DNA of 64,000 bases. It comes from an uncultured bacterium (GTDB lineage: Bacteria > Macinerneyibacteriota > Macinerneyibacteria > Macinerneyibacteriales > DSCS01). Under the pieces are notes generated by a model. The model was given only the letters and a program-made list of their open reading frames with translations. It had not been told where the DNA came from and searched no databases. Made by a program: the position numbers and the translations under genes. Location of the stretch: positions 88,346 to 152,345 of the forward strand of contig CAZJQC010000001.1 in NCBI GenBank assembly GCA_964548195.1. Reading direction: 5' to 3'. This document shows, one piece after another, positions 1 to 49,811 of this stretch (position 1 is the first letter of the stretch; every line of letters starts with the position of its first letter).

Positions 1-32
1 TGTATTTTGACATTGCGGAGACCATAAGCGAT

Positions 33-2432
33 TTGAACATGATCATCGACATCGCGAAAAAAAACCGCACTCTGCACGCCGCCGGCGGAGCCCTTCAGAA
101 TCTCATAGAAAGCTACATGGAAATAGGGGATATGAAAAAGGCGTTTGATTCCTTCAGAGTCCTTGCAAGATATGTCATCGCCCCGTCGCACGGAAAAAAC
201 CTGCAGGAGGTCTTTCCGTTTTTCCATTACGGCTCATTATTGAACATCAAGGCCGGCAATACCCGCCTTTCCTTCAGGTTCCTGACCATGTACGCCAGAA
301 AACTCCGCTCGGTCGATGAAGGGCAGCGGATGTTCCACAGGCTCAACTATCTGGCAGCGAAAGCCCAGTATTACAAATATCTGCGCCGCGACGACAAAGC
401 CACCGCCTGTCTGGAACAACTGATCGAATACAACGCGCAAAACCGGGCCGCCGGATTTTCAGCGCTGCCGTATCAGGATATCAGACGCATATTGCTTGAC
501 CTGGCTCTCTCATACGAATCGGCGGGCGATGTCAGGAGGCGCGACGACATCATGAAGACCGTCAATGCGGACTACGGAAGCGAAACGGACCCGAACGGCG
601 AGATAAACTGGGCTTTCTACAGAGCCATAACAGCCGTCGCGGAAGGCGAAAAACGCCGATATCTGGATAAGGCGCTTCGTTTTTGCATCAAAAGAAAAGA
701 TTTTGTGAACATAGACATAGTGGTGGAAAAATACCTCGATCTGTTAAAGAAGCGGGATTTTAAGTTTTTTAATGCCGTTTATCTGCTTTATATCTCATTA
801 AGAAAGTTCTACGACAACCTGCCCGAAGATTATCGCAAGAAATGGCTGTCGCTTCCCTATATATCGCGGATGACAGATGTCCTGAAAACGCATCTCGGCC
901 TTTCAGGCGCCCAACTGGTCTCAGACGAGGCGGATGTGCCGAAAAAAATATCCGGCCTCTTTTCAGCCGACCTTATGGCGAACAACATAAAGATGATACA
1001 AAAACTGAACAACGAGATATGGGACGCCCCTTCGGAGAAATTGATACCGGTCATCCTTAAGTTCATGAAAAAATACTTCATGGCCCAGAGGATCGTCCTG
1101 AGATCGCGCCCCGAGCAGAATTCGGGGGAGGAGATCAACATCAAGTATTACAGCAAAGACCTTTACGCGCAAAGGGACCGTATTGACGAGACGCTGGTAC
1201 AGCGCAGTTTCCGCGACGGTGATTTTGTCACGGCAGACAGCAAGGATTTCGGGGAGCCGTTGTCAACGATGGTGATACCGATACTTAATCCTCTCAAGAA
1301 AAGACCCTCCTGCGACACGGACAAAAGGGTAAAAAACATCACCTACAGCGACCTTTATCTGGGTTACATATACATAGACACCAAGTTCCCCCTCTCAAAC
1401 ATCAACGAATCAGCGTTGTCTATCTCAAGGATATGCGTGGAACTGATAGGGTCGACCATGGTGCATGACCAGATCAACAGGAACATGATGCAGGACCAGA
1501 CCACGGGAATAATGAACCGCCACTTCTTTTTAAACGAACTTAAAAGAAAGATGTCCCTGAGAAATAAGGAACAGACAAATCTGGTCTTTCTCATGGTGGA
1601 TATCGACCACTTTAAAAAAGTCAACGACCGTTACGGGCATCAGAAGGGCGACATCGTCCTCAATAAGATCGCGGCACTGCTGAAAAAAGGGATCAGAAAA
1701 AATGACCTGATCGGCCGATACGGCGGGGAAGAGTTCATCATAGTACTGTTCGATATCTCCGAGGAAGAAGGGCGAAAACGGGCTCTCGCACTTAAGACCT
1801 CGATAGAGAAAGCGTCCATGCTGCCCGGACTGCATCTTACAATAAGCATAGGATGTTCGCAATACCCGAAGGATTCGGAATGGATAAATATTTTGATCAA
1901 TCAGGCCGATACGGCATTGCTGTCCGCGAAAAACCACGGCCGAAACAAAGTGATGTTCTGGAACACAGACCTCTCCGACGAACGCCTTGCAAAAGACCCG
2001 CTGCACGGTATCATCAATGAAGATTTCTCACGATCCGAAAATATAATACGCAATCTTCTCGGTTTCATCGATTATGAACAAAAATCCACTTTAGATGCGT
2101 TTAAGGAAATGATGCGGTGTATAAGCACCGCAATCCCTCATAAACACGCTTATTACGAAATATATATAAACGGCAAAAAGTATTCTAAAAATGAAAACGG
2201 ATACATACATTCAGACGCCGACATAAGAGCAAGTTCCGGCAAGGTCATCATCAACTGGGGATACATGAAAAAGAACAACGGCCCGCTTCATCACGACCTG
2301 ATATACGGTTTCTCCGTAAAAGGCGTCGAAGGATTCATCATCTATTCCTCACCGGTCAGCGAGACCGAGTACAACGACGGCCATTACAATCTCATTGAAA
2401 AATATTTCAAGCTCTTTTTTTGTAAGATCTAA
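33..2432 (+). CDS. GGDEF-domain protein (putative diguanylate cyclase) with ~500-aa N-terminal helical/GAF-like region and ~220-aa C-terminal extension. The 5' end is uncertain: the frame is open to the window edge, with TTG at 33 and ATG at 39
   Basis: Motifs MVDIDHFKKVNDRYGHQKGD and RYGGEEFIIVLFD (GGEEF active site), NHGRNKV. No TM segments. In-frame with no stop back to position 3. Confidence 0.8.
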   Translation: MNMIIDIAKKNRTLHAAGGALQNLIESYMEIGDMKKAFDSFRVLARYVIAPSHGKNLQEVFPFFHYGSLLNIKAGNTRLSFRFLTMYARKLRSVDEGQRMFHRLNYLAAKAQYYKYLRRDDKATACLEQLIEYNAQNRAAGFSALPYQDIRRILLDLALSYESAGDVRRRDDIMKTVNADYGSETDPNGEINWAFYRAITAVAEGEKRRYLDKALRFCIKRKDFVNIDIVVEKYLDLLKKRDFKFFNAVYLLYISLRKFYDNLPEDYRKKWLSLPYISRMTDVLKTHLGLSGAQLVSDEADVPKKISGLFSADLMANNIKMIQKLNNEIWDAPSEKLIPVILKFMKKYFMAQRIVLRSRPEQNSGEEINIKYYSKDLYAQRDRIDETLVQRSFRDGDFVTADSKDFGEPLSTMVIPILNPLKKRPSCDTDKRVKNITYSDLYLGYIYIDTKFPLSNINESALSISRICVELIGSTMVHDQINRNMMQDQTTGIMNRHFFLNELKRKMSLRNKEQTNLVFLMVDIDHFKKVNDRYGHQKGDIVLNKIAALLKKGIRKNDLIGRYGGEEFIIVLFDISEEEGRKRALALKTSIEKASMLPGLHLTISIGCSQYPKDSEWINILINQADTALLSAKNHGRNKVMFWNTDLSDERLAKDPLHGIINEDFSRSENIIRNLLGFIDYEQKSTLDAFKEMMRCISTAIPHKHAYYEIYINGKKYSKNENGYIHSDADIRASSGKVIINWGYMKKNNGPLHHDLIYGFSVKGVEGFIIYSSPVSETEYNDGHYNLIEKYFKLFFCKI

Positions 2433-4780
2433 ACGCCGAATGCCTGAGGGTCGACGTCGGTGTAGACGGAAGAGGTCAATGCCCCCGCCGCATGTTCTAT
2501 TCTCATGAGTATCCCTTTTCCGGCCCCCCTCTTCCCCGTCCTGATGATAAAAGAGTAGCGGTATCTGTCCGTTCTTTTGTAGATGTCTCTGATATCGGCG
2601 AACAAGACCATGTCCTTTTCCGGCAGGAACTCCAAAACAGCTTTTTTCAATATATGGATCTCATCCGTCAGCGCTTTTTTGTCCCTGTTTTCAAGTATGA
2701 CCCTCACGAGATATGAAAAAGGCGGATATCCCATTTCCTTTCGGTATGTCAGTTCGGAATCATAAAAACCGCGATAGTCGTGTCTTATGGCATTTGTGAT
2801 GGTATAATGCCCGGGGGAATAGGTCTGTATGAAGGCAAGCCCGGGTTTTGCGCCTCTCCCCGCTCTGCCGGAGACCTGGCTGATCAGCTGATATGTACGC
2901 TCGTTTGCCCTGAAATCGGGGATGTTCATCATGGAATCGGCGTTGACAATACCCACGAAAGTGACATTCTCAAAGTCGATTCCCTTTGCTATCATCTGCG
3001 TACCGATAAGTATGTCGCCTTCCCCCTTGCCGAATCTGTCAAAGATATCCTTTACAGTATCATAATTGCGCGTCACAGAACCGTCCATCCTGATCAGTCT
3101 CACGCCGGGAAGCAGTTCCGTCAGCCTTTCCGCGATCTTCTCGGTACCCATGCCGCGCATGGCAAACTCAGTTTTTCCGCATTTGCCGCAGGTATATTCG
3201 CTCAGGGGCGCGGAGGCTCCGCACAAGTTGCATTTCAGCAATGATTCCCCCTTATAATATGTCAGCAGTTTTGAACAGTGGGCGCATTCGGCCGGTTCTC
3301 CGCAGGAGTTGCAGATCATATGCGTATCATATCCTTTTCTGTTGATGAATATGATGCTCTGCTCGCGGCGCTCCATCCTTTTCCCCAGTTCGGCCAGCAT
3401 GGACTCTGAAAACGGATATGTCCGCCCCCCATTAAAGACATCGGTGGAGATATCGATGATCCGTACCGCCGGGAGTTCGGCTTTATTGAACCTGCTGCTC
3501 AGGTTATGAAGCGTATATCTGCCGTTGACCGCGTTATAATATGATTCCACCGACGGCGTGGCGCTGCCCAGCACTACCGGCACATCTTCAATCTTTGCGC
3601 GGTATATGGCGGTATCCCTGCCGTTATAACGCGGAGCGTCGTCCTGCTTATAAGACCCTTCATGCTCTTCGTCCACAATGATCAGCCCGAGACGGGGCAA
3701 CGGGGAAAAAACGGCGGAACGCGGCCCCACCATCACAGTCCCTCCTCCGTTAAATGCGGCCCGCCAGGAATCATATCGCTCACCGGCTTTCATGTAGCCA
3801 TGGGTGAGCACAGCCCTGTCGCCGAACACATCCTTTATACGCGACATCAGATGTGTCGTCAAGGCCACTTCGGGGACAAGATAGATGGCGTCTCTCCCCT
3901 GCCTTACCACGGCCTCTATCAGTTTTAAGTAGATCTCCGTCTTGCCGCTTCCGGTGACTCCGTGCAATAGATGCACGGAAAAACCGCTCTCTATGTGAGG
4001 TATTATTTCTTCAAAGACCTGACGCTGTTCCACGTTAAGCGTGCCTGTGGATGTATTCATACCTTTGTCCGGCATGATCATCTCACTTTCCCGAAGATCT
4101 ATGTATACAAGTCCCTTTTTTACCAGTTCCCTCAATATCCTTCCGTCGAACTCCTCCGCGGGGGCTTCCCCTCCCATAGCAGAGAGTCTGCTGAAGGCGC
4201 CTCTCTGTGCGTAGGCGCGGGGGGAAAGGACATCGTCATGGGGTATTCCTGTGACAACGGCATATCTCCGCATGCGTTTCCCGTCGCTTACCGTCTTTTT
4301 TCTTTCTACGTAGCCCTTTGCTACCAGTTCCTCAAGAAAAGCCCCGTCCGTCCCGGTGATATTTATAAACTCGCGCCTGTCGAATTTGCCGGGCAGCGGC
4401 GCCCCTGCCGAAGGGTTGTCATCAGCGTCGAAAAGGCCAGTTTTTGAGTAAAGGTCTTTGACTTTCAGCCTCGCTGAGGGCGGATAGAATGAGTGCAGCG
4501 TCCTGCCCAGGTCTTCGCGGTAATACTCCGCCATCCAAAGCGCAAGCTCAAATAGTCCGGCCGGGATTACGGGCAATATGACTCTGTCCACGGGTCTTAC
4601 CCGCTTAACCCCTTTCGGGGGAGCCTCTTCCGCTTTAACGACATATCCCGTCCTGTATGTGTTTTTAAAGGGCACAACCACCCGCGCCCCGGGTTGAACG
4701 GTCTCTCTGTCAAATGTATACGTAAAGCTTTTTCCGGGCAGATCAGGAAATACGACGGCTGCGAATACGGGCTCTTTCAT
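2429..4780 (-). CDS. priA: Primosomal protein N' (replication restart helicase PriA)
   Basis: Walker A GVTGSGKTEIY, DEAH-like IIVDEEHEGSYKQ, C-terminal Cys cluster CNSCGEPAECAHCSKLL...CNLCG...CGKCG, 783 aa. Confidence 0.9.
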   Translation of the reverse strand: MKEPVFAAVVFPDLPGKSFTYTFDRETVQPGARVVVPFKNTYRTGYVVKAEEAPPKGVKRVRPVDRVILPVIPAGLFELALWMAEYYREDLGRTLHSFYPPSARLKVKDLYSKTGLFDADDNPSAGAPLPGKFDRREFINITGTDGAFLEELVAKGYVERKKTVSDGKRMRRYAVVTGIPHDDVLSPRAYAQRGAFSRLSAMGGEAPAEEFDGRILRELVKKGLVYIDLRESEMIMPDKGMNTSTGTLNVEQRQVFEEIIPHIESGFSVHLLHGVTGSGKTEIYLKLIEAVVRQGRDAIYLVPEVALTTHLMSRIKDVFGDRAVLTHGYMKAGERYDSWRAAFNGGGTVMVGPRSAVFSPLPRLGLIIVDEEHEGSYKQDDAPRYNGRDTAIYRAKIEDVPVVLGSATPSVESYYNAVNGRYTLHNLSSRFNKAELPAVRIIDISTDVFNGGRTYPFSESMLAELGKRMERREQSIIFINRKGYDTHMICNSCGEPAECAHCSKLLTYYKGESLLKCNLCGASAPLSEYTCGKCGKTEFAMRGMGTEKIAERLTELLPGVRLIRMDGSVTRNYDTVKDIFDRFGKGEGDILIGTQMIAKGIDFENVTFVGIVNADSMMNIPDFRANERTYQLISQVSGRAGRGAKPGLAFIQTYSPGHYTITNAIRHDYRGFYDSELTYRKEMGYPPFSYLVRVILENRDKKALTDEIHILKKAVLEFLPEKDMVLFADIRDIYKRTDRYRYSFIIRTGKRGAGKGILMRIEHAAGALTSSVYTDVDPQAFGV

Positions 4781-5553
4781 GGCCGGAGGTCTTCCGAATA
4801 GGTTTTCAGCAGCCGGTCAAACCTTGCCCTGTCGCGCTCGAGCTCCCCGGAGGAGAGAAAAGATACCGTTCCGGAGGCGGACGCGCCGGCACATGTGATG
4901 CCGGAAACACGCATCAGCTGCCGCACCGTGCCGGCATTGCCGTCGATCACGTCAGTGCCTTCCGGAAAAAAAGCCTTTATTGCCGTACGAAAAAACGGGA
5001 AATGGGTGCATCCGAGCACTACTGTACCGTAATCGGACGTATTCACATGTGAAAAGGATTCTCTCAAATATGACACAACGCCAGCTCCGTCCAAAACGGA
5101 ATTTTCCACAAATTCCACCAGGCGCGGCAACGCCACGGAATCGACAATGCCCGCCGGATCCAATAGGGAGACAAGTCCGCTGAACTTTTTTTCCTTCAAC
5201 GTCAGTTCGGTCGCGAGCACAAGCACGCGTTTTCCCCTGCTGTTTTCATGTTCGACCGCGGGCTTCACCGCGGGCTCCATGCCGATAATAGGAAAATCAT
5301 AGATCTTTCTGAGGGACGCCACGCTCACGCTGGTAGCGGTATTACACGCCAGGAGCAGCGCCTGTACATCGCAGGCCTCATATATGCGCTTTACGGCGGC
5401 ATCCACCAAAGCGGCGACATCGCTGCGGGGCCTGCTCCCGTAAGGAACATGCCCCGTATCCGCATAATAAAGGAAATCCGCGCAGGGAAGGGCGTCGAGC
5501 GCCTCTCTGAGCACGGTTATACCTCCCATGCCGGAATCAAACAGCGCTATCAT
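4777..5553 (-). CDS. murI: Glutamate racemase
   Basis: MIALFDSGMGGITVL, LLLACNTAT, VLGCTHFP motifs. Start placed at the Met of MIALFDSG (5553) because the longer ORF to 5622 would run through the tRNA-Ser gene. Confidence 0.85.
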   Translation of the reverse strand: MIALFDSGMGGITVLREALDALPCADFLYYADTGHVPYGSRPRSDVAALVDAAVKRIYEACDVQALLLACNTATSVSVASLRKIYDFPIIGMEPAVKPAVEHENSRGKRVLVLATELTLKEKKFSGLVSLLDPAGIVDSVALPRLVEFVENSVLDGAGVVSYLRESFSHVNTSDYGTVVLGCTHFPFFRTAIKAFFPEGTDVIDGNAGTVRQLMRVSGITCAGASASGTVSFLSSGELERDRARFDRLLKTYSEDLRP

Positions 5554-5577
5554 GACGACCCGCCGCGCAAAACAAAA

Positions 5578-5665
5578 CGGAGAGGGTGGGATTCGAACCC
5601 ACGGTACATGAAACATGTACAACAGATTTCGAGTCTGCCGCCTTCGTCCACTCAGCCACCTCTCC
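5578..5665 (-). tRNA. tRNA-Ser (anticodon CGA), class II with long variable arm; no encoded CCA
   Basis: Cloverleaf read by eye: acceptor GGAGAGG/CCTCTCC, anticodon loop CUCGAAA, variable arm GTACATGTTTCATGTAC, T-arm GTGGGTTCGAATCCCAC. Confidence 0.85.
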
Positions 5666-6510
5666 TACAGGACGATAAAACCAAATATCACGGGCATATC
5701 TTCCCGTTCGGGATACTCCGTAACGTTATAAAAGAAGAACATCATCGACAGATAAAGGAAAACATAAAAGGGCAATAGTATAAGGACTCTCATGCCGTTA
5801 AATGCTATTATCTCACCAACGGTGTTCAAAACGCCATATGGAGTTCCAAACTTAAATTCAATGCCGAAAAAATACCTGGCCAGAAGTCCGTCAAACAGAT
5901 TGACAAGAAGCCATCCGGTTAAAAAGACAGCCCCAAAGACAATATATTTGCCCAGATTTTCCTGAAATATGATAAATGCTTTTTTCACTTTCGTAAAGTA
6001 ATTTCTGCCTTCATGCAGAAGAAGCATGAAAATATTCCATTTGATCACCACGAACACGACGATCACAAGATAAAACAATGCTGTTTGCATCACTGTCGTC
6101 GCCGCCGCGCTGAGGGTGTTTTTCGCAGAGATGGCTCCCAGTGCGGAAATCACATATTTATGAAAAAAATGTATGAAAGCGAGATAGATTACATCAAGCA
6201 GCGTCATGAAGAGCGCGGGCCGGGCGTATGATTTAAAATATCTTTTAATATCGGGCTTGTTTCCGCCCAGCGACCGGACAAAGACAAATTCAAACAGCCT
6301 GTCTATTATTATGAAAAGGAGCACTATGGAATAGGCCGTCCATCTTGACGCGCAGCATTGAAAAAACTCTCGTTTGTAAAAACGGGCGTCAAGCAATACA
6401 AATGAAAATAACACTGACAGCGACAGCCATCTGATGGCGCCGCCCCCGGTAAACAATATCTCCCTGGCCGCGTAAAATGCCTGTCTCAGGCTTAAAAACA
6501 CTTTTCTCAT
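5665..6510 (-). CDS. Polytopic integral membrane protein of unknown function; first gene transcribed after the polysaccharide locus
   Basis: 6-8 hydrophobic helices, no recognisable catalytic motif. Its ATG overlaps the stop of the upstream dehydrogenase gene (ATGA), suggesting translational coupling; its stop overlaps the tRNA-Ser 5' nucleotide. Confidence 0.55.
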   Translation of the reverse strand: MRKVFLSLRQAFYAAREILFTGGGAIRWLSLSVLFSFVLLDARFYKREFFQCCASRWTAYSIVLLFIIIDRLFEFVFVRSLGGNKPDIKRYFKSYARPALFMTLLDVIYLAFIHFFHKYVISALGAISAKNTLSAAATTVMQTALFYLVIVVFVVIKWNIFMLLLHEGRNYFTKVKKAFIIFQENLGKYIVFGAVFLTGWLLVNLFDGLLARYFFGIEFKFGTPYGVLNTVGEIIAFNGMRVLILLPFYVFLYLSMMFFFYNVTEYPEREDMPVIFGFIVL

Positions 6511-11026: not shown

Positions 11027-12060
11027 CTGTTCTCCTTATGGCAATCTTTTCCGTAATACCTTCCGCACCAGTCAACAAAGATCTCCAACCCTTTTTCTAT
11101 GGGAGTGCTGGGATCATAACCCAAAATATTTTTAGCCTTTGATATATCGGCGAAAGTCCTCTTGACGTCGCCAGGCTGTTCATCGGCCCATTTTACGACG
11201 GCTTTTACTCCGATGTTTTTTTCCAGCATCATGATCAGTTCGTCAAGCCTTACCGTCCTGCTTTCTCCGAGATTAAACACCTCGTATATGCCTTCTCCGC
11301 TGTTTACATGATCCATGGCTTTTACGGTGCCGTCTATTATATCGTCAATATAGGTGTAATCCCTCTCCATGCTGCCGTCCCCGAATGCCGTTATCCCGGA
11401 ACCTTCCATCATCAGCCTGGTAAACTTATGTATGGCAAGATCAGGGCGCTGCCCGGGGCCGTAAACGGTAAAGAACCTGAGCAGGGCCATATCGATTCCG
11501 TAAAGATGATGATATACATGGGACAACACTTCCACTGTCTTTTTTGTGGCGGCGTAAGGAGATATGGGCCTATCCACATTCATATCCTCCCTGAACGGAG
11601 CCTCTTTGCAGTTTCCGTACACAGACGAGGAGGAAGCGGTCACTATCTTACTTATTCCTTTTTTCACCATGTTTTCAAGTATATTTAATGTGCCGGTGAC
11701 ATTTACCTCGTTGTATAATAACGGTTGTTCTATGGAAGGCCGGACGCCGGCCATTGCGGCCATATGAAAAACTGCATCTATATGACGGGAAGCAAACATG
11801 TCATCCAATGACGCTTTGTCTCTTATATCGACATTGCATATGGTGTAACGGGGATTTTTATCCGCTATTTTTTTAAGCGACTCAATATCACAGACATCAT
11901 GTTGTACGCCCAAAGTCCTTTTAACGTTGTCGATCTTATATTCCAAGGGGTAAAAATCACAAAAATTATCAACATTTATCACGTTGTGGCCGTCTTTGAG
12001 AAGCCTTCCGCATAAATGCGAACCTATAAATCCCGAGCCGCCGGTAACACAAAAATCCAT
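11023..12060 (-). CDS. NAD-dependent epimerase/dehydratase, probably UDP-glucuronate 4-epimerase or related (short-chain dehydrogenase/reductase family)
   Basis: TGGSGFIGSHL Rossmann motif, YAATKK (YxxxK) catalytic motif, 4-bp overlap with ugd. Confidence 0.8.
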   Translation of the reverse strand: MDFCVTGGSGFIGSHLCGRLLKDGHNVINVDNFCDFYPLEYKIDNVKRTLGVQHDVCDIESLKKIADKNPRYTICNVDIRDKASLDDMFASRHIDAVFHMAAMAGVRPSIEQPLLYNEVNVTGTLNILENMVKKGISKIVTASSSSVYGNCKEAPFREDMNVDRPISPYAATKKTVEVLSHVYHHLYGIDMALLRFFTVYGPGQRPDLAIHKFTRLMMEGSGITAFGDGSMERDYTYIDDIIDGTVKAMDHVNSGEGIYEVFNLGESRTVRLDELIMMLEKNIGVKAVVKWADEQPGDVKRTFADISKAKNILGYDPSTPIEKGLEIFVDWCGRYYGKDCHKENR

Positions 12061-12213
12061 AATACACCTCCTATGCAGGATATTGAAAAATAAGCGCTAT
12101 GTCAACACAAATAGGAAAAAGGGAAATCGGTGAAATGCAAACTGAAAGCCGCTACTCATTATTATTTGACATATAAAAATAAGTGTTATAGCGGCGGTCT
12201 TGACTAAAAAAGA

Positions 12214-12296
12214 CGGAGAGGGTGGGATTCGAACCCACGGTGCCGGTAGGCACACACGAGTTCCAGTCGTGCCGATTCAACCACTCTCGCACCTCC
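12214..12296 (-). tRNA. tRNA-Ser (anticodon GGA)
   Basis: Anticodon stem CACGA/TCGTG with loop CUGGAAC, long variable arm, T-arm GTGGGTTCGAATCCCAC. One acceptor-stem mismatch as read by eye, so the ends are +/-1 nt. Confidence 0.75.
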
Positions 12297-12300
12297 CCAA

Positions 12301-12392
12301 CGGAGAGAGTGGGATTCGAACCCACGGAGGCGCCTTTTAGCGCCTCACACGATTAGCAATCGTGCGCCTTCAGCCTGCTCGGCCATCTCTCC
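12301..12392 (-). tRNA. tRNA-Ser (anticodon GCT)
   Basis: Perfect acceptor GGAGAGA/TCTCTCC, anticodon loop UUGCUAA, 21-nt variable arm, T-arm GTGGGTTCGAATCCCAC. Confidence 0.85.
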
Positions 12393-12402
12393 ATATCTGC
12401 AA

Positions 12403-12487
12403 CGGAGGAGGTAGGATTCGAACCCACGGTACCTTGCAGTACAACGGTTTTCAAGACCGCCGCTTTCGACCTCTCAGCCACTCCTCC
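12403..12487 (-). tRNA. tRNA-Ser (anticodon TGA)
   Basis: Acceptor GGAGGAG/CTCCTCC, anticodon loop CUUGAAA, variable arm, T-arm GTGGGTTCGAATCCTAC. Confidence 0.85.
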
Positions 12488-13024
12488 ATTGATGAAAAAT
12501 TATCAAACTAACGTCATAATGTCAAGATAAAAATCATATATGATCATTGATATGGGAATGTACTACTATTATTATATTAAAATAGCAGCAGTAGTAGTGT
12601 GTGTGAATATGTTAATAAGAATGTAAGGTGCTGATAAAAAGGACTTTTGGATACAATTGCGTGTGAAGAAGTGATGGTGTATAGATGTTTGCGTATGTGT
12701 GTAAAAAAATGGCGGAAAAAAGAAGGGCGGATGAAGCGGGTGTTGTGCACAAAATACAAACATTTGCAAATTTGAGTTTAAAATTATAATTGTGAATAAA
12801 GTGTGTTCAAGATGTAAAAATATAGGGGTGTAAATAGGTTTAAACGGCGTATCATGTTGCTGTGAGGTGAGATAGAGCGCGAAAAAACGGATTAAAAAAG
12901 CGTATGAAAATGTTAATAAGGATTACGACATATTATAAATTGTTGATATTTATGAAGATATTGAATGTAGAAAAAATGCTTGCGGTTCGGATTGCCGGGT
13001 ATATTATATTGAAGTGGTCAGGAT
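12488..13024. other. Candidate chromosomal replication origin (oriC): DnaA-box cluster plus AT-rich unwinding region upstream of dnaA
   Basis: TGTGAATAA at 12791-12799 is a perfect reverse-complement DnaA box (TTATTCACA). One-mismatch boxes at 12602, 12610, 12662, 12743 (palindromic TTGTGCACAA), 12911 and 13026, all in the same orientation. AT-rich stretches at 12520-12600 and 12920-13000. The plus strand is almost C-free over 12540-12800. Confidence 0.7.
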
Positions 13025-13051
13025 GTGTTAATAAACAGAACAAAGGACGAG

Positions 13052-14377
13052 ATGGTGGATATTAGAACATACATAATGGACAGGCTTGCCAGCAAGATGG
13101 ACCGGAGCAATCTGGAAAATCTGTTTGAGACGGTGAGTATTGTAAAAAAAGGCAACAATATCGCTTTTGAGTCCTATGACGAGATCTTTCTTCACAGAAT
13201 AAAAATACTGTTTCAGGAAGACATCGGCCTTATGCTCAGGGAAGGCATAGGCGGCGATGTGTCAGTGGAATTCAAGACCATCGACCGCGTTTCTTCGGAG
13301 GCGGTGGTCCGGGACGGCATCCGTTGTGAGCCGGGCCGGGTGGCGAGCAATTTTGACGAGGATTTTAATTTTTCGAACTTTATCATAGGCAGGTCAAATG
13401 AGATGGCCTATTCCGCGGCGATGGCAGTGGCCCAGAGTTATTCAAAATCCATATACAACCCTCTGTTCATATACGGGGAATCCGGATTGGGCAAGACGCA
13501 TCTGATGCAGGCCATAGGCAATAAGATAAGGCAATATGAGCGTAACGCCACTTGTTTTTACGTAACGGCGGACAAGTTCAGAAACGAGCTGATCGAGGCT
13601 ATAAAAAACAGGTCCACCGATTCCTTCCGCGAAAAATACAGAAAAGTGGATGTGCTGCTTATAGACGACATACATGTCATTGAAAAATCGGAGTCTGTTC
13701 AGGAAGAGTTTTTCCATACATTCAACGATCTTTACAAGCTTAAAAACCAGATCGTCATCACAAGCGACCGGCCGCCTGCGGAAATCAACATTGAAAAAAG
13801 GCTTATCACGAGGTTTGAATGGGGCCTTGTGACGGATATAAAAAAGCCGGAGCTGGAGACCCGTGTGGCTATTTTAAAGAAAAAAGCCGAAAACATGGGT
13901 GTCGACATCTCTCCGGAACTGATGTTTTACATAGGGGAAAACGTCACAAGCAATGTAAGGAAACTTGAGGGTTGTCTGCGCAGAATAACCTTTTATAACA
14001 AAATATCCGGCAAAGGGGGGACGCTTAACAGAAGCGATGTCACCAATCTTTTGTCGGAGTTTTTCGACAACAACCTCAAGGACCTTACCGCAGAAAACAT
14101 AAAAAAACAGGTGGCGGCTTATTTTAACATCACAGTCAAGATGCTTGAAAGCAAAAGAAGGAACAAGGAAATAGTGCATCCCCGGTTCATTGCGATGTTC
14201 CTCTGCAGAAAATACACGGGAGAGACCCTTCAGGGCATAGGGCGTTCCTTCGGCGGGCGGGACCATGCGGCCGTAATAAACGCATGCAATAAGATAGAGG
14301 CCCGTATCAATGAGGATATTGTATTCAGAAACGAAATAGACAAAGTGGTCAGTTTTTTAAATAACGGGGGGTATTGA
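13052..14377 (+). CDS. dnaA: Chromosomal replication initiator protein DnaA
   Basis: Walker A GESGLGKTHLMQAIGN, DVLLIDDIHVI, ITSDRPP, C-terminal DNA-binding HPRFIAMFLCRKYTGETLQGIG. Start chosen at ATG 13052 (AGGA 5 nt upstream); the ORF track's GTG at 13025 is an alternative. Confidence 0.9.
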   Translation: MVDIRTYIMDRLASKMDRSNLENLFETVSIVKKGNNIAFESYDEIFLHRIKILFQEDIGLMLREGIGGDVSVEFKTIDRVSSEAVVRDGIRCEPGRVASNFDEDFNFSNFIIGRSNEMAYSAAMAVAQSYSKSIYNPLFIYGESGLGKTHLMQAIGNKIRQYERNATCFYVTADKFRNELIEAIKNRSTDSFREKYRKVDVLLIDDIHVIEKSESVQEEFFHTFNDLYKLKNQIVITSDRPPAEINIEKRLITRFEWGLVTDIKKPELETRVAILKKKAENMGVDISPELMFYIGENVTSNVRKLEGCLRRITFYNKISGKGGTLNRSDVTNLLSEFFDNNLKDLTAENIKKQVAAYFNITVKMLESKRRNKEIVHPRFIAMFLCRKYTGETLQGIGRSFGGRDHAAVINACNKIEARINEDIVFRNEIDKVVSFLNNGGY

Positions 14378-14379
14378 AT

Positions 14380-15483
14380 ATGAAATTCACATTAAAAAAA
14401 AGTGAGATATTAAAACCGCTTAACAAAGTGAGAAACATAATTAACATCAAATCGATGAAACCGGTGCTGCAGAACATGCTCGTGGACCTTAAAGACGGCG
14501 TTATGGTCATAGAGGGCTCGGACCTTGAGGTCGGCATAAGGTATAAGATCGATATCTCCGGCATAGAGGATGAGGGGCGTACGACGTTTCCCGCGGAAAA
14601 ACTTGTGAAGATCGTGACGGAGGCCCCGGACGAGAACATTGCCGTGCTCGTGGAGGACGACAAGGCTTATATAGCATCCGGCAGCGCAAAATTCGAACTT
14701 TCTGTGCTGTCTGCGGACGATTATCCCGAATTTCCGGAGTTTGAGAGTTCCGGGAAGCTTACGGTGTCATTCAAAAAGTTAAAAGAGATGATAAACAGGA
14801 CGATCATAGGGACCGCCATGGACAGCGCGAGGTATGTTTTCAGGGGCATATTGTTCGAGTATGAGGACGGCGTGTTCAACCTCGTGGCCACCGATTCACA
14901 TATACTCGCCAAGGCTTCCGCGGCGCCGGGAGACTGTTCCATACAGGAACCCATGAAAGTCGTGGTCCCCCGAAAAGTACTTGAAGAGCTCCTGAAGTTT
15001 GATTATGAGGGCAACATCGACATCTCCTTCAACAATCAAAATATAAGATTTGACTTTGATGATGTCGTCCTTGTATCAAGGCTGATCGACGCCAAATACC
15101 CCAAATACGACAAGGTGATACCCACCATAAACAACAAGGAAGCGTTTGTTCCGAGAGGCGAACTGCTTGATTCCTTTAAAAGAGTATCCGTGTTTATCAA
15201 CAGGGAATCCGGCCGTTCCTCGCTTGCCTTCACGGCGAACAAACTCAGGGTCACCGCGCGTTTGTCGGACATAGGTACGGCAGAAGATGTGATTCCCGTG
15301 GAATATGACGGCGAGGAGCTTCGCATTGATTTTAACTACAAGTATTTAAAGGACATACTCGGCACCCTTGAGGATGACAAAATATCATTCGGGATGTACA
15401 ACAATGAGAGCGCCGTGATAGTCAGGCCTCAGGGCGGCGGGGATTATATATGGGTGGTAATGCCTTTGGTGATGCTTGACTGA
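14380..15483 (+). CDS. dnaN: DNA polymerase III beta sliding clamp
   Basis: 369-aa three-domain clamp. Position immediately after dnaA, with the stop overlapping. GGGGGG RBS 9 nt before the ATG. Confidence 0.88.
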   Translation: MKFTLKKSEILKPLNKVRNIINIKSMKPVLQNMLVDLKDGVMVIEGSDLEVGIRYKIDISGIEDEGRTTFPAEKLVKIVTEAPDENIAVLVEDDKAYIASGSAKFELSVLSADDYPEFPEFESSGKLTVSFKKLKEMINRTIIGTAMDSARYVFRGILFEYEDGVFNLVATDSHILAKASAAPGDCSIQEPMKVVVPRKVLEELLKFDYEGNIDISFNNQNIRFDFDDVVLVSRLIDAKYPKYDKVIPTINNKEAFVPRGELLDSFKRVSVFINRESGRSSLAFTANKLRVTARLSDIGTAEDVIPVEYDGEELRIDFNYKYLKDILGTLEDDKISFGMYNNESAVIVRPQGGGDYIWVVMPLVMLD

Positions 15484-15498
15484 AATGCGGGCCGCGGT

Positions 15499-16545
15499 AT
15501 GTCAGTCAAGTCTCTGAGTATTCTAAATTTCAGGAATATCGGGGAACTGACCTTATCGCCTTCGGAAGAATTTAATTTTTTGATAGGCCCCAACGGGTCG
15601 GGCAAGAGCAATCTGCTTGAGTCCATTTATCTGTTTTTCAACGGGCGCAGTTTCAGAAAGGCCCGTTTTCAGGATATGTTGAACCACGGATCCCCGTTTT
15701 TCCGTCTTTCCGCGGCCATGGGCGACGCGCCGGCCCGGAGGTTTATCTATTATGAATGTGACGGGCGGCCCAAATACGGTTATGAGGGCGCGGAATCTTC
15801 AAGGGGAGAGTTTTTCGGGGATTTTCACCCGTTTGTGCTCAGCAGAGAGATCTTCAACCTGTTTTATTACGGAAGCGCCGACACCAGACGCTTTTTTGAC
15901 GGTTATGCCGGCATGTTTGACCCTTCTTACAGAAGGGATCTGGCCCGGTTCAACCGGGTGCTGCGGGAGCGCAATGCGTTGCTGAAGACGGAATTCCCCG
16001 ATCCGGAGGAGCTGAAGATATGGGATCAGTATTTTTCCAGGTACGCGGCCCTTGTAGAAAAGGGCAGGCGCGGGTTCTGTGCGATGATAAACGACGGGCT
16101 GAGCGGTATTTTTTCGGGGCTGTTCGCCGATATAAGGGATGCAACCATCGTGTATGAGCCGTCGCTTGACGGACGGGATCCGTCCGATTTTATAAGCGAG
16201 GACCTTCGCCGCAGGGCCACGACCCGCGGCCCCCACCGGGATAACTACCGTCTGGTGACTGGGGGCAGGGATATGTGCGCGCACGCTTCGCAGGGACAGA
16301 TGAAAAGTTTTGTGATCTCTTTCCTGCTCGGCGTGGCGGACCTGCTTGAAGCGCAGCGGGATGCCGAGGCGGTGATACTTCTTGATGATATTTTTGAGGA
16401 ACTGGACCCGGGAAGAAAGGATGCCGTTTATGAACGGATACGGGGATCCGGCAGGCAGGTGTTTTTGACAATGGCGGAAGACGCTTTTTCCGCCGGGTCC
16501 GGAGACGCCGTCTTCCGGGTCGAGGGCGGGGCCGTGCATGGCTGA
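15499..16545 (+). CDS. recF: DNA replication and repair protein RecF
   Basis: LSILNFRNIGELTLSPSEEFNFLIGPNGSGKSNLLESI Walker A and conserved dnaA-dnaN-recF synteny. Confidence 0.9.
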   Translation: MSVKSLSILNFRNIGELTLSPSEEFNFLIGPNGSGKSNLLESIYLFFNGRSFRKARFQDMLNHGSPFFRLSAAMGDAPARRFIYYECDGRPKYGYEGAESSRGEFFGDFHPFVLSREIFNLFYYGSADTRRFFDGYAGMFDPSYRRDLARFNRVLRERNALLKTEFPDPEELKIWDQYFSRYAALVEKGRRGFCAMINDGLSGIFSGLFADIRDATIVYEPSLDGRDPSDFISEDLRRRATTRGPHRDNYRLVTGGRDMCAHASQGQMKSFVISFLLGVADLLEAQRDAEAVILLDDIFEELDPGRKDAVYERIRGSGRQVFLTMAEDAFSAGSGDAVFRVEGGAVHG

Positions 16546-21799: not shown

Positions 21800-23404
21800 T
21801 ACGCCGCGGGCCGGCAGGAAGTTTTCCTTTATCGTCCTGGGGCTTGTCCACCGCAGCAGATTCAGCGCGGACCCGGCCTTGTCATTGGTGCCGGAACCGC
21901 GTGAGCCGCCAAAAGGCTGCTGACCCACCACAGCGCCTGTGGGTTTGTCGTTGATGTAGAAGTTTCCCGCCGCATGGCTGAGGGCCCGGCGCGCCAGGAT
22001 AACGGCGTCGCGCGTGGAAGCAAAGACCGCGCCGGTCAGGCCGTACGGCGATGTCGTATCGCATAGTTCAAGGGTCTCCTCATATTTGTCGTCCTCATAG
22101 AAGTAAAGGGTGAGGACCGGCCCGAAGATCTCCTCTTTCATGGATCTGTATAAGGGGGTCCTTGCCTCGATGACGGTGGGCTCTATGAAATATCCTTTGG
22201 AATCGTCGCCCGAGCCTCCCATAAGTATTTGAGCGTCGTCGGATTCCCTGGCGTGTTCTATGTAAGACATTATCGAGCCGTATGAGGCGGAATCGATGAC
22301 GGCGTTAAAATATGCGGACATCGATTCGGGAGCGGAGGGGGCCATATGCGACAGCATCGTCTTCATCTCAGCCAGCAGCTCTGTTTTCATGGAGCGCGGT
22401 ATATAGCCGCGCGAAGCCGCTGAGCATTTCTGTCCCTGATATTCGAAGGCGCCCCGCACAAGAGCCGAGGCGACTTCGCGCGGGTCGGCTGACTGATGAG
22501 CGAAGACAAAATCCTTTCCGCCGGTCTCTCCCACTATGCGCGGATAGGATGTATAACTGCCGATATTGCCGCCGATCGTCTGCCAGATATGGTTGAACAC
22601 ACCCGTGGAGCCGGTGAAGTGCACGCCGGCCAGCTCTTTTCGGCGAAGAGCCGCGCCGCCTATGGTCGAGCCGCTTCCTGGTATGAAATTAATGACGCCG
22701 GGCGGGAAGCCCGCCTCCGTGAATATCTTCATAAGCAGGTAGTTTGAAAGCACCGCGGTTGACGCGGGCTTCCAGAGCACGGTGTTCCCCATCAGGGCGG
22801 GAGCGGTCGGGAGGTTTCCGCCTATGGCTGTGAAGTTGAAGGGCGTTATCGCAAGCACAAAACCCTCGAGCGGCCGGTAATCGGTGATGTTCAACGTGGC
22901 GGATGAAGACCGCAGCGGCTGGTTTGCGTATATTTCAGACATGTAATATGCATTGAACCTGAGGAAATCAGCCATTTCACATACGGCGTCGATCTCAGCC
23001 TGATAGACATCCTTGCTTTGTCCCGACATTGTCGCGGCATTCAGTTCCGCTCTGTATTTTTTTGTGATCAGGTCCGCGGCTTTCAACGCTATGGCCGCCC
23101 TGTCCATGTACCCGACACGCTCCCATTCCTTTTTGGCCTCAAGGGCGGCGTCTACTGCCATCGCCACCTCTTTTTCGCCGGCTTTGTGGTAACGCGCGAG
23201 CACATGCGCGTGGTCATGCGGCATTCTTATTTCACCGGTATTGCCGGTGCGTATTTCCTTGCCTCCTATTATAAGAGGTATGTCGGCCGTTTCGGAGCCG
23301 ATCTTTTCCAAAGCTTTTTTGAGCGAATCCCGCTCATGCGAGCCTTTCCGGTATTCAAACACAGGCTCGTTTTCGGGAACAGTCATTAAAAAAAGAGTAT
23401 TCAT
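21779..23404 (-). CDS. L-glutamate gamma-semialdehyde (1-pyrroline-5-carboxylate) dehydrogenase, aldehyde dehydrogenase superfamily
   Basis: FTGSTGVFNHIW, catalytic GQKCSAASR, EIFGPVLTLYFYEDD. Start placed at MNTLFLM (23404), which has a GGAGGTG RBS. Confidence 0.85.
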   Translation of the reverse strand: MNTLFLMTVPENEPVFEYRKGSHERDSLKKALEKIGSETADIPLIIGGKEIRTGNTGEIRMPHDHAHVLARYHKAGEKEVAMAVDAALEAKKEWERVGYMDRAAIALKAADLITKKYRAELNAATMSGQSKDVYQAEIDAVCEMADFLRFNAYYMSEIYANQPLRSSSATLNITDYRPLEGFVLAITPFNFTAIGGNLPTAPALMGNTVLWKPASTAVLSNYLLMKIFTEAGFPPGVINFIPGSGSTIGGAALRRKELAGVHFTGSTGVFNHIWQTIGGNIGSYTSYPRIVGETGGKDFVFAHQSADPREVASALVRGAFEYQGQKCSAASRGYIPRSMKTELLAEMKTMLSHMAPSAPESMSAYFNAVIDSASYGSIMSYIEHARESDDAQILMGGSGDDSKGYFIEPTVIEARTPLYRSMKEEIFGPVLTLYFYEDDKYEETLELCDTTSPYGLTGAVFASTRDAVILARRALSHAAGNFYINDKPTGAVVGQQPFGGSRGSGTNDKAGSALNLLRWTSPRTIKENFLPARGVSYPFAE

Positions 23405-23410
23405 AAGCAC

Positions 23411-23440
23411 CTCCGATATGTTTGTTAAAACATATCGGAG
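23411..23440 (-). promoter_or_regulatory. 13-bp perfect inverted repeat (CTCCGATATGTTT-gtta-AAACATATCGGAG) in the 5' leader of the P5C dehydrogenase gene, overlapping its putative Shine-Dalgarno element
   Basis: Read directly. The arms are exact reverse complements. The 3' arm on the mRNA contains the GGAG of the GGAGGTG RBS, 6 nt before the ATG. Confidence 0.6.
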
Positions 23441-23470
23441 GATAGCGGGTTTGCTCTGTCGTGTCAATAT

Positions 23471-23502
23471 AAAAGCGGGGGTTGCCGGCCGGCGCCCCCC
23501 GC
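23471..23502 (-). terminator. Rho-independent terminator downstream of the S9 peptidase gene
   Basis: On the minus strand, GCGGGGG-gcgccggccggcaa-CCCCCGC followed by TTTTAT. Confidence 0.7.
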
Positions 23503-23511
23503 TCGAAGGTC

Positions 23512-25506
23512 TTATCCTTTAAGGTATTTGTCGAACCAGCCCGAGATCAGCTCAAGCCTCTTGATCCTTCGGTCCGTTCGCCCCTGACGGGAAAGTCCGT
23601 GAGATTCTTCCGGGAAACGGATAAAACGGGTATCGACACCCAGGTATTTAAGGGCGACATATACCTGCTCGCCCTGTTCCGCCGAACAGCGGAAATCGTT
23701 TTCACTGTGTATGATCATGGTGGGTGTTTTCGCGTTTCCCATATACTTCATGGGTGACTGGCGCCAGTAATTATCTGTGTCCTCCCATGGAGGCGTCTCT
23801 CCGAACTCATACTGGAAGTTCCAGTTTACGTCGCTTGTGCCCCACATGCTGATAAGGTTTGAGACGCTTCTCTGTGAGACCGCGGCGGCAAAGCGGTGGG
23901 TGTGGCCTATGATCCAGTTGGTCATGTAGCCTCCGTAACTGCCGCCGGTCACGCCCATTTTTTCCATGTCTATGTAGGGTTTGGCTGCCATGATGTCAGC
24001 GAATCTCATGAGGTCCTCAAAATCCACGGTGCCCCAGTTGTTCCATATCGAGGCCGTGTGTTTTTCGCCGTAGCCCTGGCTGCCGCGGGGGTTGCAGAAA
24101 TAGACCACATAGCCCTGCGAGGCAAGGTAGTTGAACTCATGCATAAAATGGTATCCGTATTGCAGTCTCGGGCCGCCGTGTATTTCCAGTATGGACGGGT
24201 ATTTTTTAGAAGGGTCAAAACCAGGAGGCTTCATGATCCATCCCTGTATGGATGTCCCTGATGCGGATTCGAACTCGATCTCTTCCACCGCGGGCAATGT
24301 CTTTTTCCGGAGCATGGCGCCGTTGATCTCCGCCACCAATGTCTTTGCCGGTGCGCCAGGCTCGAAAAAGGCGATCTCATAAGGGCGGGACATATCCCCG
24401 AATATATATGCGCCGCGACGTCCCGATCCGTCTAAAGACAGGCCGCCCATGACCCCCTTTTCCCGCATGAGTTCGCGGACCTCTCCCGTCGAAGGGTCGG
24501 CCGAACAGATGAAGGTGGCTCCCCTTGCGGATACCTGAAAGAGTATGCGTTTTCCCTGATCCGCCCATACCGGGCCGAATCCGGGCACTCCGCCCGAATC
24601 GTTCAGCGTCAGAGAGCCGAGGGTGAAGTCATGGTCTTTTGTAAGAGAGACGCAGGTTCCCGTCCCGGCGAGGTCTTTCAGCCACAATTCGGTCTTTTTC
24701 CACCATTTTCCACGGCCTTCCGTTCCCTCAAAGGCCAGCCACTTACCGTCCGGGGAAAGCGAAAAAGCGCCTTTGCTGCCGTTTATCGTTGTTATCGGCG
24801 CAATATTTCCGCCCTTTGCGGGTATACTGTAATATTCCCATTCATAGGGATTAAGGCCCGGGTCGTCCGACCTGTTCGAATAGAAGACGATGTCTTTTCC
24901 GTCGGGTGTCCATACGGGCATGAACTCCTCGTGTTCGCCGTGTGTCAGGGCCGTTGTCTTGCCCGACTTGACGTTTACGGTGAGTATATGCCATTTCTCC
25001 GCGGGGATATAACCCGCGCCGTCCGCTTTAAAGAAGACCTTGTCATAGTCTCTGAACAGCGGAAGGCTGTCGCGTTCTTTTTCATGCCCCTTGTCGTCCC
25101 CGGCGGGTTTTTCCCGGTAACAAAAGGCTATGGACCTGCCGTCAGGGCTCCATGCGGGGGCGGAAAAAGCGCCGTCTTTTATCGTAAGGGGGCGCGCCTC
25201 CCCGCCGTCTGCGGGTATGATGTAAAGTCCCGGTCTGCCGTTGTCCCGGTCTGAGACAAAAGCCAGCTCTCTGCCGTCCGGCGACCATGCCGGCGATGTG
25301 TCGTTCCAGTTGCCATATGTGAAACGTCTGATAAGGGATTTTTTTTCTCCGGACGCCATATAGATGTTTTGCCGCGTCTTCCCGCTTTCTTTGTCGGCGG
25401 CTTTGACCGTGTATGCGACGCAGCGTCCGTCAGGCGACATGCGGGCTGCGGTGATGGAATTGAACAGATACAGGTCTGAAGCCGAAACAATCTTTTCAAC
25501 AGTCAT
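23512..25506 (-). CDS. S9-family serine peptidase (prolyl oligopeptidase/acylaminoacyl-peptidase-like) with N-terminal TolB-like beta-propeller
   Basis: Propeller repeats (SPDGR..., WSPDG x3), catalytic GGSYGGYMT (GxSxG), C-terminal alpha/beta-hydrolase Asp/His region. Confidence 0.85.
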   Translation of the reverse strand: MTVEKIVSASDLYLFNSITAARMSPDGRCVAYTVKAADKESGKTRQNIYMASGEKKSLIRRFTYGNWNDTSPAWSPDGRELAFVSDRDNGRPGLYIIPADGGEARPLTIKDGAFSAPAWSPDGRSIAFCYREKPAGDDKGHEKERDSLPLFRDYDKVFFKADGAGYIPAEKWHILTVNVKSGKTTALTHGEHEEFMPVWTPDGKDIVFYSNRSDDPGLNPYEWEYYSIPAKGGNIAPITTINGSKGAFSLSPDGKWLAFEGTEGRGKWWKKTELWLKDLAGTGTCVSLTKDHDFTLGSLTLNDSGGVPGFGPVWADQGKRILFQVSARGATFICSADPSTGEVRELMREKGVMGGLSLDGSGRRGAYIFGDMSRPYEIAFFEPGAPAKTLVAEINGAMLRKKTLPAVEEIEFESASGTSIQGWIMKPPGFDPSKKYPSILEIHGGPRLQYGYHFMHEFNYLASQGYVVYFCNPRGSQGYGEKHTASIWNNWGTVDFEDLMRFADIMAAKPYIDMEKMGVTGGSYGGYMTNWIIGHTHRFAAAVSQRSVSNLISMWGTSDVNWNFQYEFGETPPWEDTDNYWRQSPMKYMGNAKTPTMIIHSENDFRCSAEQGEQVYVALKYLGVDTRFIRFPEESHGLSRQGRTDRRIKRLELISGWFDKYLKG

Positions 25507-46271: not shown

Positions 46272-47578
46272 CGGGACATTTTGACGACAGACGGTGGTTT
46301 TCCGATGCTCGCGCGGCGATGGCGGCCGACCTTGACCTGCTTATACGCGCTGAAAGCGTTGAGTCCGAAGGAGCCGAAGGCGCACCTTTCGGCGGCGGGG
46401 TGAGGGACGCGCTTGACGCGGCCATGAGACTGTTCCAAAGAGAAGGGTTTTCCATCATCGCGACCGAAGGGCTGTTTGGCGCCGCCGACTGGGGCGCGGG
46501 CAAAGAGACTGTCGCCGCGTTGTGCCATTGCGACGTGGTGCCTCCGGGCAACGGCTGGACGGTGGCGCCTTTTAAACTTACCGTAAAAGAGGGCAAATGG
46601 TTTGGACGCGGCGTGGTGGACGACAAAGGGCCGCTGATCATGCTTTTATACGCTGTAAAATACCTTAAGGAGTCCGGATTCGTCCCTTCGCGGCGGTTAA
46701 GAGTGATAGTGGGAACAAATGAAGAGACCGGGTGGAAGGGTATAGCCCGGTACAAGGAATTGCATGAGGAACCCGATTTCGCATTCGCTCCCGATGCCGT
46801 ATTTCCCGTCATCAATGCGGAGAAAGGCATACTGCATTTGAAGATAAGGACGGCTGTCGGCATAAAGGGCCTTGTCTCGCTGACGGGCGGCGACGCTCCC
46901 AACATGGTGGCGGGCCACGCCGAAGCCGTTTTTGATTCGCGGCCTTTGTGCGCGGAAGACAAGGATATAATATCACGCAGCGAGGGCGGGATGTGGATGA
47001 TAGGGGCCCGCGGGAAAACGGCTCACGCCAGTCTGCCTGAAACGGGAGAAAACGCCATCGACAAACTATTCGATGTGCTGGGCAGGTATTACAGCTCGCC
47101 CGCGGCCGGTATGCTGAAGGCATTAAATGGAGAATGGAAAAAAGATTTTCATGACGATATCAGCGGAGAACTCACGGTAAACACCGGGATGGCGGGCGAC
47201 GACGGATTTTCCGTCGACATACGATATCCTGTCACGAGATCCAGCGAAGAGGTGTTGAAAGCATTGGCGAAGGCGCTGGGCTCCGGGGCCGAGATCACGG
47301 TGGAGGACGACACCGCTCCGCACAGTGTCGACGGAGAAAACCGCTTTGTAAAGGCGCTTGGCGAGGCGTACGGAGAGGTCACGGGAAAGGGTTTCCGGCC
47401 CCCGGAATCGATGGGAGGCGGCACATACGGGAGAGCGTTTAAGAACGGTGTCGCTTTCGGCCCGCTTTTTCCGGATGATGAGGAGACCGCTCATCAGGCC
47501 GACGAGTATCTTAAGGAGAGCTCTTTTGTCAACGGATGCGTGGTGTACGCATCCGCGCTCAGGAAGTTGCTGAGCTGA
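46259..47578 (+). CDS. M20-family dipeptidase (PepV/Sapep-like)
   Basis: LCHCDVVPPGNGW (HxDVVP), GRGVVDDKGP, C-terminal metal-ligand region. TTG start with AGGAGG RBS. Confidence 0.8.
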   Translation: MAEITGHFDDRRWFSDARAAMAADLDLLIRAESVESEGAEGAPFGGGVRDALDAAMRLFQREGFSIIATEGLFGAADWGAGKETVAALCHCDVVPPGNGWTVAPFKLTVKEGKWFGRGVVDDKGPLIMLLYAVKYLKESGFVPSRRLRVIVGTNEETGWKGIARYKELHEEPDFAFAPDAVFPVINAEKGILHLKIRTAVGIKGLVSLTGGDAPNMVAGHAEAVFDSRPLCAEDKDIISRSEGGMWMIGARGKTAHASLPETGENAIDKLFDVLGRYYSSPAAGMLKALNGEWKKDFHDDISGELTVNTGMAGDDGFSVDIRYPVTRSSEEVLKALAKALGSGAEITVEDDTAPHSVDGENRFVKALGEAYGEVTGKGFRPPESMGGGTYGRAFKNGVAFGPLFPDDEETAHQADEYLKESSFVNGCVVYASALRKLLS

Positions 47579-49810: not shown

Positions 49811-49811
49811 C

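Follow-up and report, generated by a model that had tools for sequence, protein, structure and literature searches.

A perfect palindrome over the Shine-Dalgarno (SD) sequence of a gene can be read as an RNA hairpin that hides the ribosome-binding site or as a DNA site bound by a protein dimer, and the leader of the pruA gene analysed here raises the question which of the two is correct. The sequence-only reading of this locus favoured a translational switch, either a thermosensor or a hairpin controlled by a metabolite or a protein, and named as the alternative an operator for a dimeric repressor of proline/arginine catabolism. The comparisons made within the window (the whole 64-kb stretch of DNA that was analysed), with related genomes and with metagenome contigs lead to a different answer: the palindrome is probably the operator of a ModE-family winged-helix dimer placed on the pruA promoter, a predicted repressor site. 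The element is of a known kind, a ModE-type box; its target gene, pruA, is unexpected.

Geometry and copy number of the palindrome

The inverted repeat exists but is larger than the 13 bp reported initially, since each arm has one pair more. The 14-bp arms (23410-23423 and 23428-23441) flank a 4-nt centre and are 100 % complementary. No perfect inverted repeat of the 64 kb with a loop of up to 12 nt is longer, the runner-up having arms of 11 bp, and arms of 14 bp are expected by chance about 0.003 times (estimated as 64000 x 13 / 4^14). The full GGAGG of the SD sequence lies within the 3' arm as read on the minus strand.

The palindrome is a single-copy element of the window. The search with its 18 core bases, allowing up to three mismatches, returned one site versus 0.03 expected, which rules out a dispersed repeat or mobile element, and no second dyad was seen in the window in a half-site search with two mismatches (40 hits versus 19 expected). 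An intrinsic terminator was also rejected because the palindrome stem is followed by GTGCTTATG instead of a U-tract; the terminator role is filled by a separate hairpin (23474-23503) with TTTT upstream of the pruA -35 hexamer. Elsewhere in the window an 11-bp perfect palindrome, GAACAGCGGGG/CCCCGCTGTTC (47724-47745), is located inside the coding sequence of a PdxR-like regulator (GntR HTH plus aminotransferase domain, minus strand) which is divergent from pdxS/pdxT (47559-50381).

The pruA gene and its predicted promoter

The product of pruA is a true P5C dehydrogenase (TIGR01236: 773 bits versus a cut-off of 614). The earlier assignment of the start codon and the contact of the hairpin arm with the ribosome-binding site were both confirmed: the ATG (23404-23402, minus strand) aligns with the starts of the orthologues and the arm includes GGAGG. 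On the minus strand the leader reads TTGACA-cgacagagcaaacccgc-TATCCT-C-CGATATGTTTTAACAAACATATCG-GAGGTGCTT-ATG.

The TTGACA-17-TATCCT promoter described before as lying upstream of the palindrome is present and is the sole promoter-like site at pruA. The match alone is, however, at chance level for a 1-kb region (1 found versus 0.8 expected), and its -10 hexamer overlaps the 5' arm. The arrangement TTGACA-16/17-TAnnnT is kept in all four Mcinerneyibacteriota leaders compared below, the -10 hexamer of the relatives being TACCAT or TACTCT at 16-nt spacing. In these leaders the dyad described below as a box begins 1-7 nt past the -10 hexamer, which places the predicted +1 at box position 0-6. The coordinates of the leader and of the neighbouring genes are given in Table 1.

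Table 1. Features of the pruA locus in the window
Feature	Position	Strand	Description or basis
pruA, L-glutamate gamma-semialdehyde (P5C) dehydrogenase, 541 aa	21779..23404	-	Pfam Aldedh; TIGR01236 equivalog above cut-off
Shine-Dalgarno GGAGGTG	23408..23414	-	Invariant in four leaders; the box ends on its first G
Perfect palindrome, 14 + 4 + 14 bp	23410..23441	.	CCTCCGATATGTTT gtta AAACATATCGGAGG on the + strand
ModE-type box CGATATGTTT-N4-AAACATATCG, CG-N20-CG geometry	23414..23437	.	Template, weight matrix, relatives, E. coli modA layout
Predicted transcription start	23431..23433	-	Inferred, 6-8 nt past the -10; inside the left half-site and the 5' arm
-10-like hexamer TATCCT	23439..23444	-	17-nt spacer; last four bases in the outer 5' arm; ends 1 nt before the box
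-35-like hexamer TTGACA	23462..23467	-	Invariant in all four Mcinerneyibacteriota leaders
GC-rich hairpin + TTTT, terminator-like	23471..23503	-	After the upstream gene; the -35 follows directly
S9-family peptidase gene, PD40 propeller + Peptidase_S9	23512..25506	-	Upstream of pruA; syntenic with it in all relatives

The window also contains a chromosomal replication origin (12000-16545), with a change of GC skew sign near 12000 and the genes dnaA (13025-14377), dnaN (14374-15483) and a recF-like gene (15499-16545). Genes for tRNA-Ser are found at 12212-12488 (four, which differ in their anticodons) and at 5578-5665 (a fifth).

Conservation of the dyad in related genomes

The RNase Y of the window is 64-76 % identical to proteins labelled Candidatus Mcinerneyibacteriota. 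Three syntenic loci of Mcinerneyibacteriota, L202 (GCA_035391585.1), L203 and L204, with PruA 62-64 % identical, were compared with the window; they are mutually close, and conservation across them represents approximately two independent lineages within the phylum. Their common gene order is S9 peptidase, pruA, a 172-aa convergent gene (with a bPH_2 domain in L202) and a Wzi-like gene. The synteny extends in L202 and L204 to HD-NUDIX upstream and to a hexapeptide transferase and a histidine kinase downstream. The closest PruA homologue among the 5.8 billion proteins searched is 64 % identical. A further contig, L201 (ENA ERZ23495300, scaffold_3329, 1-3684), comes from the same organism, with a sequence identical over the 281 nt of the pruA leader region that were aligned, and therefore adds no independent evidence. 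Its pruA and S9 peptidase genes are each called as two fragments, probably due to assembly frameshifts, which would explain why the protein database holds no 100 % PruA match.

The alignment of the four leaders contains the invariant blocks TTGACA, CGATATG, ACATA and CGGAGGTG. The conserved part of the dyad is CGATATG-N10-CATAnCG together with the SD sequence, while the spacer and the left flank vary. In the three relatives CGATATG-N10-CATAACG abuts GGAGGTG and the start codon, the region reading CGATATGCAC-N6-(A/T)ACATAACG-GAGGTG, and the 10-nt spacers of the four leaders differ freely (TTTTAACAAA, CACGAGCATA, CACGAATAAA and CACAAAAAAA). Fixed half-sites around a free spacer are the signature of a dimeric DNA-binding protein and not of a stem. 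The palindrome is consequently not conserved upstream of pruA orthologues in the sense that a hairpin would demand: the two half-sites and the SD sequence are kept in the three relatives, the stem is not. Further away, the exact core was not found at 80 genome loci of pruA orthologues, and the box was not found in the non-syntenic close homologues L205, L206 and L208-L212.

The dyad as a probable ModE-type box

The window site matches the box template CGnTAT(A/G)T ... A(T/C)ATAnCG, with the outer CGs 20 bp apart, at 12 of 12 positions and is the only such site in the 64 kb. Its core fits the E. coli ModE consensus ATCGNTATATA-N6-TATATANCGAT (PMC545781). The sequence immediately upstream of modA in E. 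coli K-12, CGTTATATTGTCGCCTACATAACG, has the same CG-N20-CG frame as the window box and shares its right half, TACATAACG, with the L202 dyad.

A metagenome scan for GATATGTTTN4AAACATATC returned at least 120 loci with the exact 18-base core. In 37 of the 120 listed, modA and/or a ModE N-domain gene is located not more than approximately 220 nt away; 23 of the 120 are located directly upstream of modA (local HMM) and 29 lie beside a ModE N-domain gene. The association is also seen among the 45 listed loci with a GC content of at least 55 %, 35 of which adjoin modA and/or a ModE N-domain gene, and many of the listed matches come from contigs of 60-70 % GC, where an AT-rich 18-mer is unexpected. 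The listed modA-upstream loci often share the layout of the window, CATATC-GGAG-6 nt-start, and in one of the loci (L185) the box is next to a gene for full ModE (HTH_1 + TOBE/Mop) and a TonB receptor gene.

Not all of the listed matches are operators. In 30 of the 120 (L085, L087, L097, L122 and 26 other loci) the core is a conserved coding motif, GAT ATG TTT CCn CAA ACA TAT CAT, which encodes DMFPQTYH in the C-terminal part of uracil-5 methyltransferases of the RumA/TrmA type. One low-GC match (L192, 224-283) differs from the operator-type sites in that its palindrome is lengthened by 15 pairs in either direction (aaaaagtcgcccttttta...).

The modE-modA intergenic regions (L086, L091, L092, L109, L123, L195 and others) have two ModE boxes 21-33 nt apart. 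These two-box modA promoters are of high GC content and presumably proteobacterial; the distal box abuts a -35-like CTTG, and immediately after the proximal one come GGAG and the start codon of modA. Fifteen second boxes of such regions, unselected by the search pattern, were used to build a weight matrix. The pruA site of the window scored 26.6 bits, compared with 23-30 for the training boxes, 12.9 for the runner-up site of the window and 16.8 for the maximum over 30 shuffled windows, in a test that is only partly independent since the template of the training boxes was informed partly by the window site. The dyads of L203 (20.2 bits), L204 (19.7) and L202 (15.6) were each the top site of their own locus.

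The identification of the dyad as a ModE-family box upholds the operator half of the alternative given by the sequence-only reading and corrects the other half, as it points to a molybdate-type regulator or a ModE-like paralogue and not to a proline/arginine regulator. It also accounts for most of the symmetry of the palindrome: the window dyad owes its perfection to the inner TTT/AAA and to the A/T at the N position, and these bases are likewise those of the commonest proteobacterial box. The box does not include the four outer pairs CCTC/GAGG, which are restricted to the window lineage and turn the 5' arm there into an anti-SD sequence. They are the sole part of the window dyad left unexplained.

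Predicted action of the regulator

A ModE-family dimer bound over the predicted -10/+1 region would block RNA polymerase and so repress pruA, given that the box starts 1 nt after the predicted -10 hexamer and covers the predicted start. ModE likewise covers the start site at the E. coli modA promoter. Canonical ModE binds DNA once it carries molybdate or tungstate; with a regulator of this type, pruA would be repressed in the ligand-bound state. Both the direction of regulation and the signal are predicted here by analogy with canonical ModE.

Neither a tblastn search of the 64 kb and of L201-L207 with two ModE queries nor a Pfam scan of the large ORFs of the window detected a ModE-like gene, and we infer that a ModE-family protein is encoded elsewhere in the genome. 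The regulators present in the window, an OmpR-type response regulator with its kinase, the PdxR-like GntR/MocR protein and NrdR, were considered as local candidates and rejected, as none of their genes adjoins pruA. OmpR-type regulators bind direct repeats, and this candidate was rejected for that reason.

There was no Mo-related gene among the scanned ORFs of the window, and pruA itself is not a Mo gene; to our knowledge it has no link to Mo or W. A literature search found neither a paper linking ModE or molybdate regulation to P5C dehydrogenase nor a useful account of the physiology of Mcinerneyibacteriota. The ModE regulon of Geobacter sulfurreducens has been predicted to reach beyond Mo genes (PMC2700814).

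Folding of the leader RNA and alternative regulators

According to the switch model the whole 14-bp hairpin forms in the mRNA and keeps GGAGG inaccessible as long as it is not opened by heat, a metabolite or a protein. RNA starting at or before 23441 indeed folds with -23.2 to -23.3 kcal/mol (z from -6.5 to about -7), with the whole SD sequence paired and CCUCC of the 5' arm acting as a perfect anti-SD. The ribosome-binding site thus stays paired in the full-length RNA, as had been anticipated. From the predicted start, which falls within the 5' arm, the 14-bp stem covering the SD sequence is unable to form, and RNA from 23433 reaches only -6.2 kcal/mol, no better than shuffled sequences (z about 0.1). 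The relatives argue against the switch as well. In L202-L204 the flank opposite the SD sequence is non-complementary, mismatches disrupt the N-position pair as well as the inner pairs, and the folds of these leaders are no better than those of shuffled sequences (z 0.06 to 1.09), without any SD hairpin. Among the 14 pairs six are invariant, four are formed only in the window and four are broken in one or two relatives; a single pair is changed on both sides, and the covariation score of 0.095 is close to the shuffled mean of 0.089. A palindrome over the ribosome-binding site was present in none of 76 more distant pruA leaders, and there was no Rfam match at E <= 1 within 22900-24000. Known RNA thermometers rely on weak, mismatched stems, unlike the perfect 14-bp stem found here. 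The hairpin is missing from the orthologous leaders, both the three syntenic and the 76 distant ones, which the sequence-only reading had itself named as evidence against a switch; as a conserved mechanism the switch model is refuted, and for the window we consider it very improbable. What the window lineage has in addition to its relatives are the outer pairs CCTC/GAGG, which may be due to chance or may serve as a secondary silencing of transcripts reading through from the upstream gene. Their role could be a dual one, a protein operator in DNA whose extended palindrome hides the SD sequence in read-through RNA from the S9 peptidase gene, leaving transcripts from the promoter of pruA itself translatable. 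The position of the predicted +1 inside the 5' arm and the difference between -23 kcal/mol for the full-length RNA and -6 for the promoter-proximal RNA fit such an arrangement, and some read-through is plausible since the terminator-like hairpin upstream is followed by just four T. The extension is nevertheless confined to a single lineage, relatives with the same gene order do without it, and four complementary flanking bases are estimated to arise by chance with a probability of about 1/256, or about 1/64 when the -10 hexamer is taken to dictate the T; dual use is in our opinion unlikely.

The dyad could also be recognized by a dimeric regulator of another family, either of the PadR type or a repressor of proline/ornithine catabolism with a ModE-like motif. 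Other winged-helix families use overlapping motifs, e.g. ATGT-N8-ACAT of PadR, and this motif is present in the window site; moreover, pruA is not a Mo gene, and the similar boxes found before other semialdehyde dehydrogenase genes (see below) suggest a catabolic regulon. The relatives, however, carry ATGC-N8-ACAT and not ATGT, and the conserved outer CGATATG and CATAnCG with their CG-N20-CG spacing are in the style of a ModE box. The score of the window site falls within the range of genuine modE-modA boxes, and a regulator gene is adjacent to pruA in none of the four syntenic loci (larger ORFs scanned). A non-ModE regulator therefore seems improbable, and the ModE-family operator remains the reading that we prefer. 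On this reading, even a perfect palindrome over an SD sequence may serve as a binding site for a protein in the DNA, with a 5' arm that stays outside the transcript.

ModE-type boxes near other semialdehyde dehydrogenase genes

Similar boxes precede semialdehyde dehydrogenase genes in other genomes. In a MAG probably of Bacteroidetes (L019) a box matching 12 of 12 positions (2872-2895) is found at -123 of a pair of genes for PruA and an L-piperidine-6-carboxylate (P6C) dehydrogenase (2995-6242); the number of such matches expected by chance across the 76 leaders is estimated at approximately 7e-4. The exact core lies 43 nt before an ALDH-pruA pair in L190 (1-3063), a low-GC metagenome contig which is probably from Bacteroidetes, and in L186 (2812-3312) it overlaps a TATGTT -10 hexamer before a P6C dehydrogenase gene. 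The case of L116, where an ALDH gene is 335 nt from two boxes, was too loose to count.

A variant dyad, CGAATnGCA-N6-TGCnATTCG, is present in the Bacteroidales-type pruA leaders of L002, L006 and L042. It is 24 bp long, with the CG-N20-CG geometry of the ModE box, and lies at -50 to -60 in L002 and L006, forming a perfect 12+12 palindrome in the latter. In L042 (a Bacteroidales MAG, 1554-2040) a gene for a 125-aa protein with only the ModE N-domain is located directly upstream of pruA. There may be a family of Mop-less ModE-like regulators dedicated to pruA.

In L206 (265-5619), whose PruA homologue is 64 % identical, the genes for a class III aminotransferase, a tungsten-type aldehyde:ferredoxin oxidoreductase (AFOR_N/AFOR_C) and PruA stand in a row. 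This W-enzyme/pruA cluster is without a ModE box.

Taken as a lead and not as proof, these loci suggest a recurring role of ModE-like regulators in the control of amino-acid semialdehyde dehydrogenases. The broader proposal, that ModE-family regulators control NAD-dependent P5C/P6C dehydrogenases in several unrelated lineages, is put forward tentatively, as a possibility on the doubtful side. Two types of regulator are conceivable, a Mop-less ModE-like paralogue and canonical ModE that senses Mo/W. The purpose of such control might be cofactor sparing, with the NAD enzyme derepressed once Mo/W-dependent aldehyde oxidation fails. If the palindrome of the window is indeed a ModE-family operator, the reach of a trace-metal regulator extends to the catabolism of amino acids in a candidate phylum of uncultured amino-acid fermenters. 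Together with the recurrence of the box before P5C and P6C dehydrogenase genes of other lineages, this would provide a testable link of the Mo/W status, or of a ModE-like sensor of another ligand, to the breakdown of proline, ornithine and lysine.

Comparison with known systems

The full-length fold of the pruA leader resembles RNA thermometers (ROSE, fourU) and other SD-sequestering leaders in the pairing of the SD sequence with an upstream anti-SD. It differs from ROSE and fourU in having a perfect 14-bp stem of -23 kcal/mol with neither conservation nor covariation nor an Rfam match, and this stem is probably not fully transcribed.

Fold-back inhibition of the translation of IS10/IS50 transposases was reportedly described by Davis, Simons and Kleckner in 1985 and by Schulz and Reznikoff in 1991. 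The likeness consists in a predicted native start located inside the 5' arm of a hairpin sequestering the ribosome-binding site, so that only external transcripts fold. In contrast to the insertion sequences, pruA is a housekeeping catabolic gene and not a transposase gene, and the arrangement is a predicted one in a single lineage.

The ModE motif of Methanosarcina acetivorans, RTTATGT-N8-RCATAAY, was verified by EMSA, and the targets of this ModE are nitrogenases and metal transporters, a regulon extending beyond Mo uptake (PMC12327845). The window site, GATATGT-N8-ACATATC, matches this motif at six of seven positions per half-site, and the right half of L202, ACATAAC, at seven of seven. The difference is in position 2 of the half-site, which is A in the window and T in M. 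acetivorans.

With the ModE operator of E. coli modABC and the Mo-boxes of Rhodobacter MopA/MopB the window site shares a 24-bp dyad with the outer CGs 20 bp apart, as is seen when the boxes of E. coli (CGTTATATTGTCGCCTACATAACG), the window (CGATATGTTTTAACAAACATATCG) and L202 (CGATATGCACGAGCATACATAACG) are lined up. Unlike the modABC operator, it precedes pruA and not a gene for a molybdate transporter or a Mo enzyme, it belongs to a candidate phylum in which the presence of ModE is predicted, and its symmetry is perfect and continues for another 4 bp at either end, reaching into the SD sequence. Like the modABC operator, it has half-sites of the TAT(A/G)T type, is located at the (predicted) core promoter directly upstream of the SD sequence, and is expected to mediate repression by the ligand-bound dimer.
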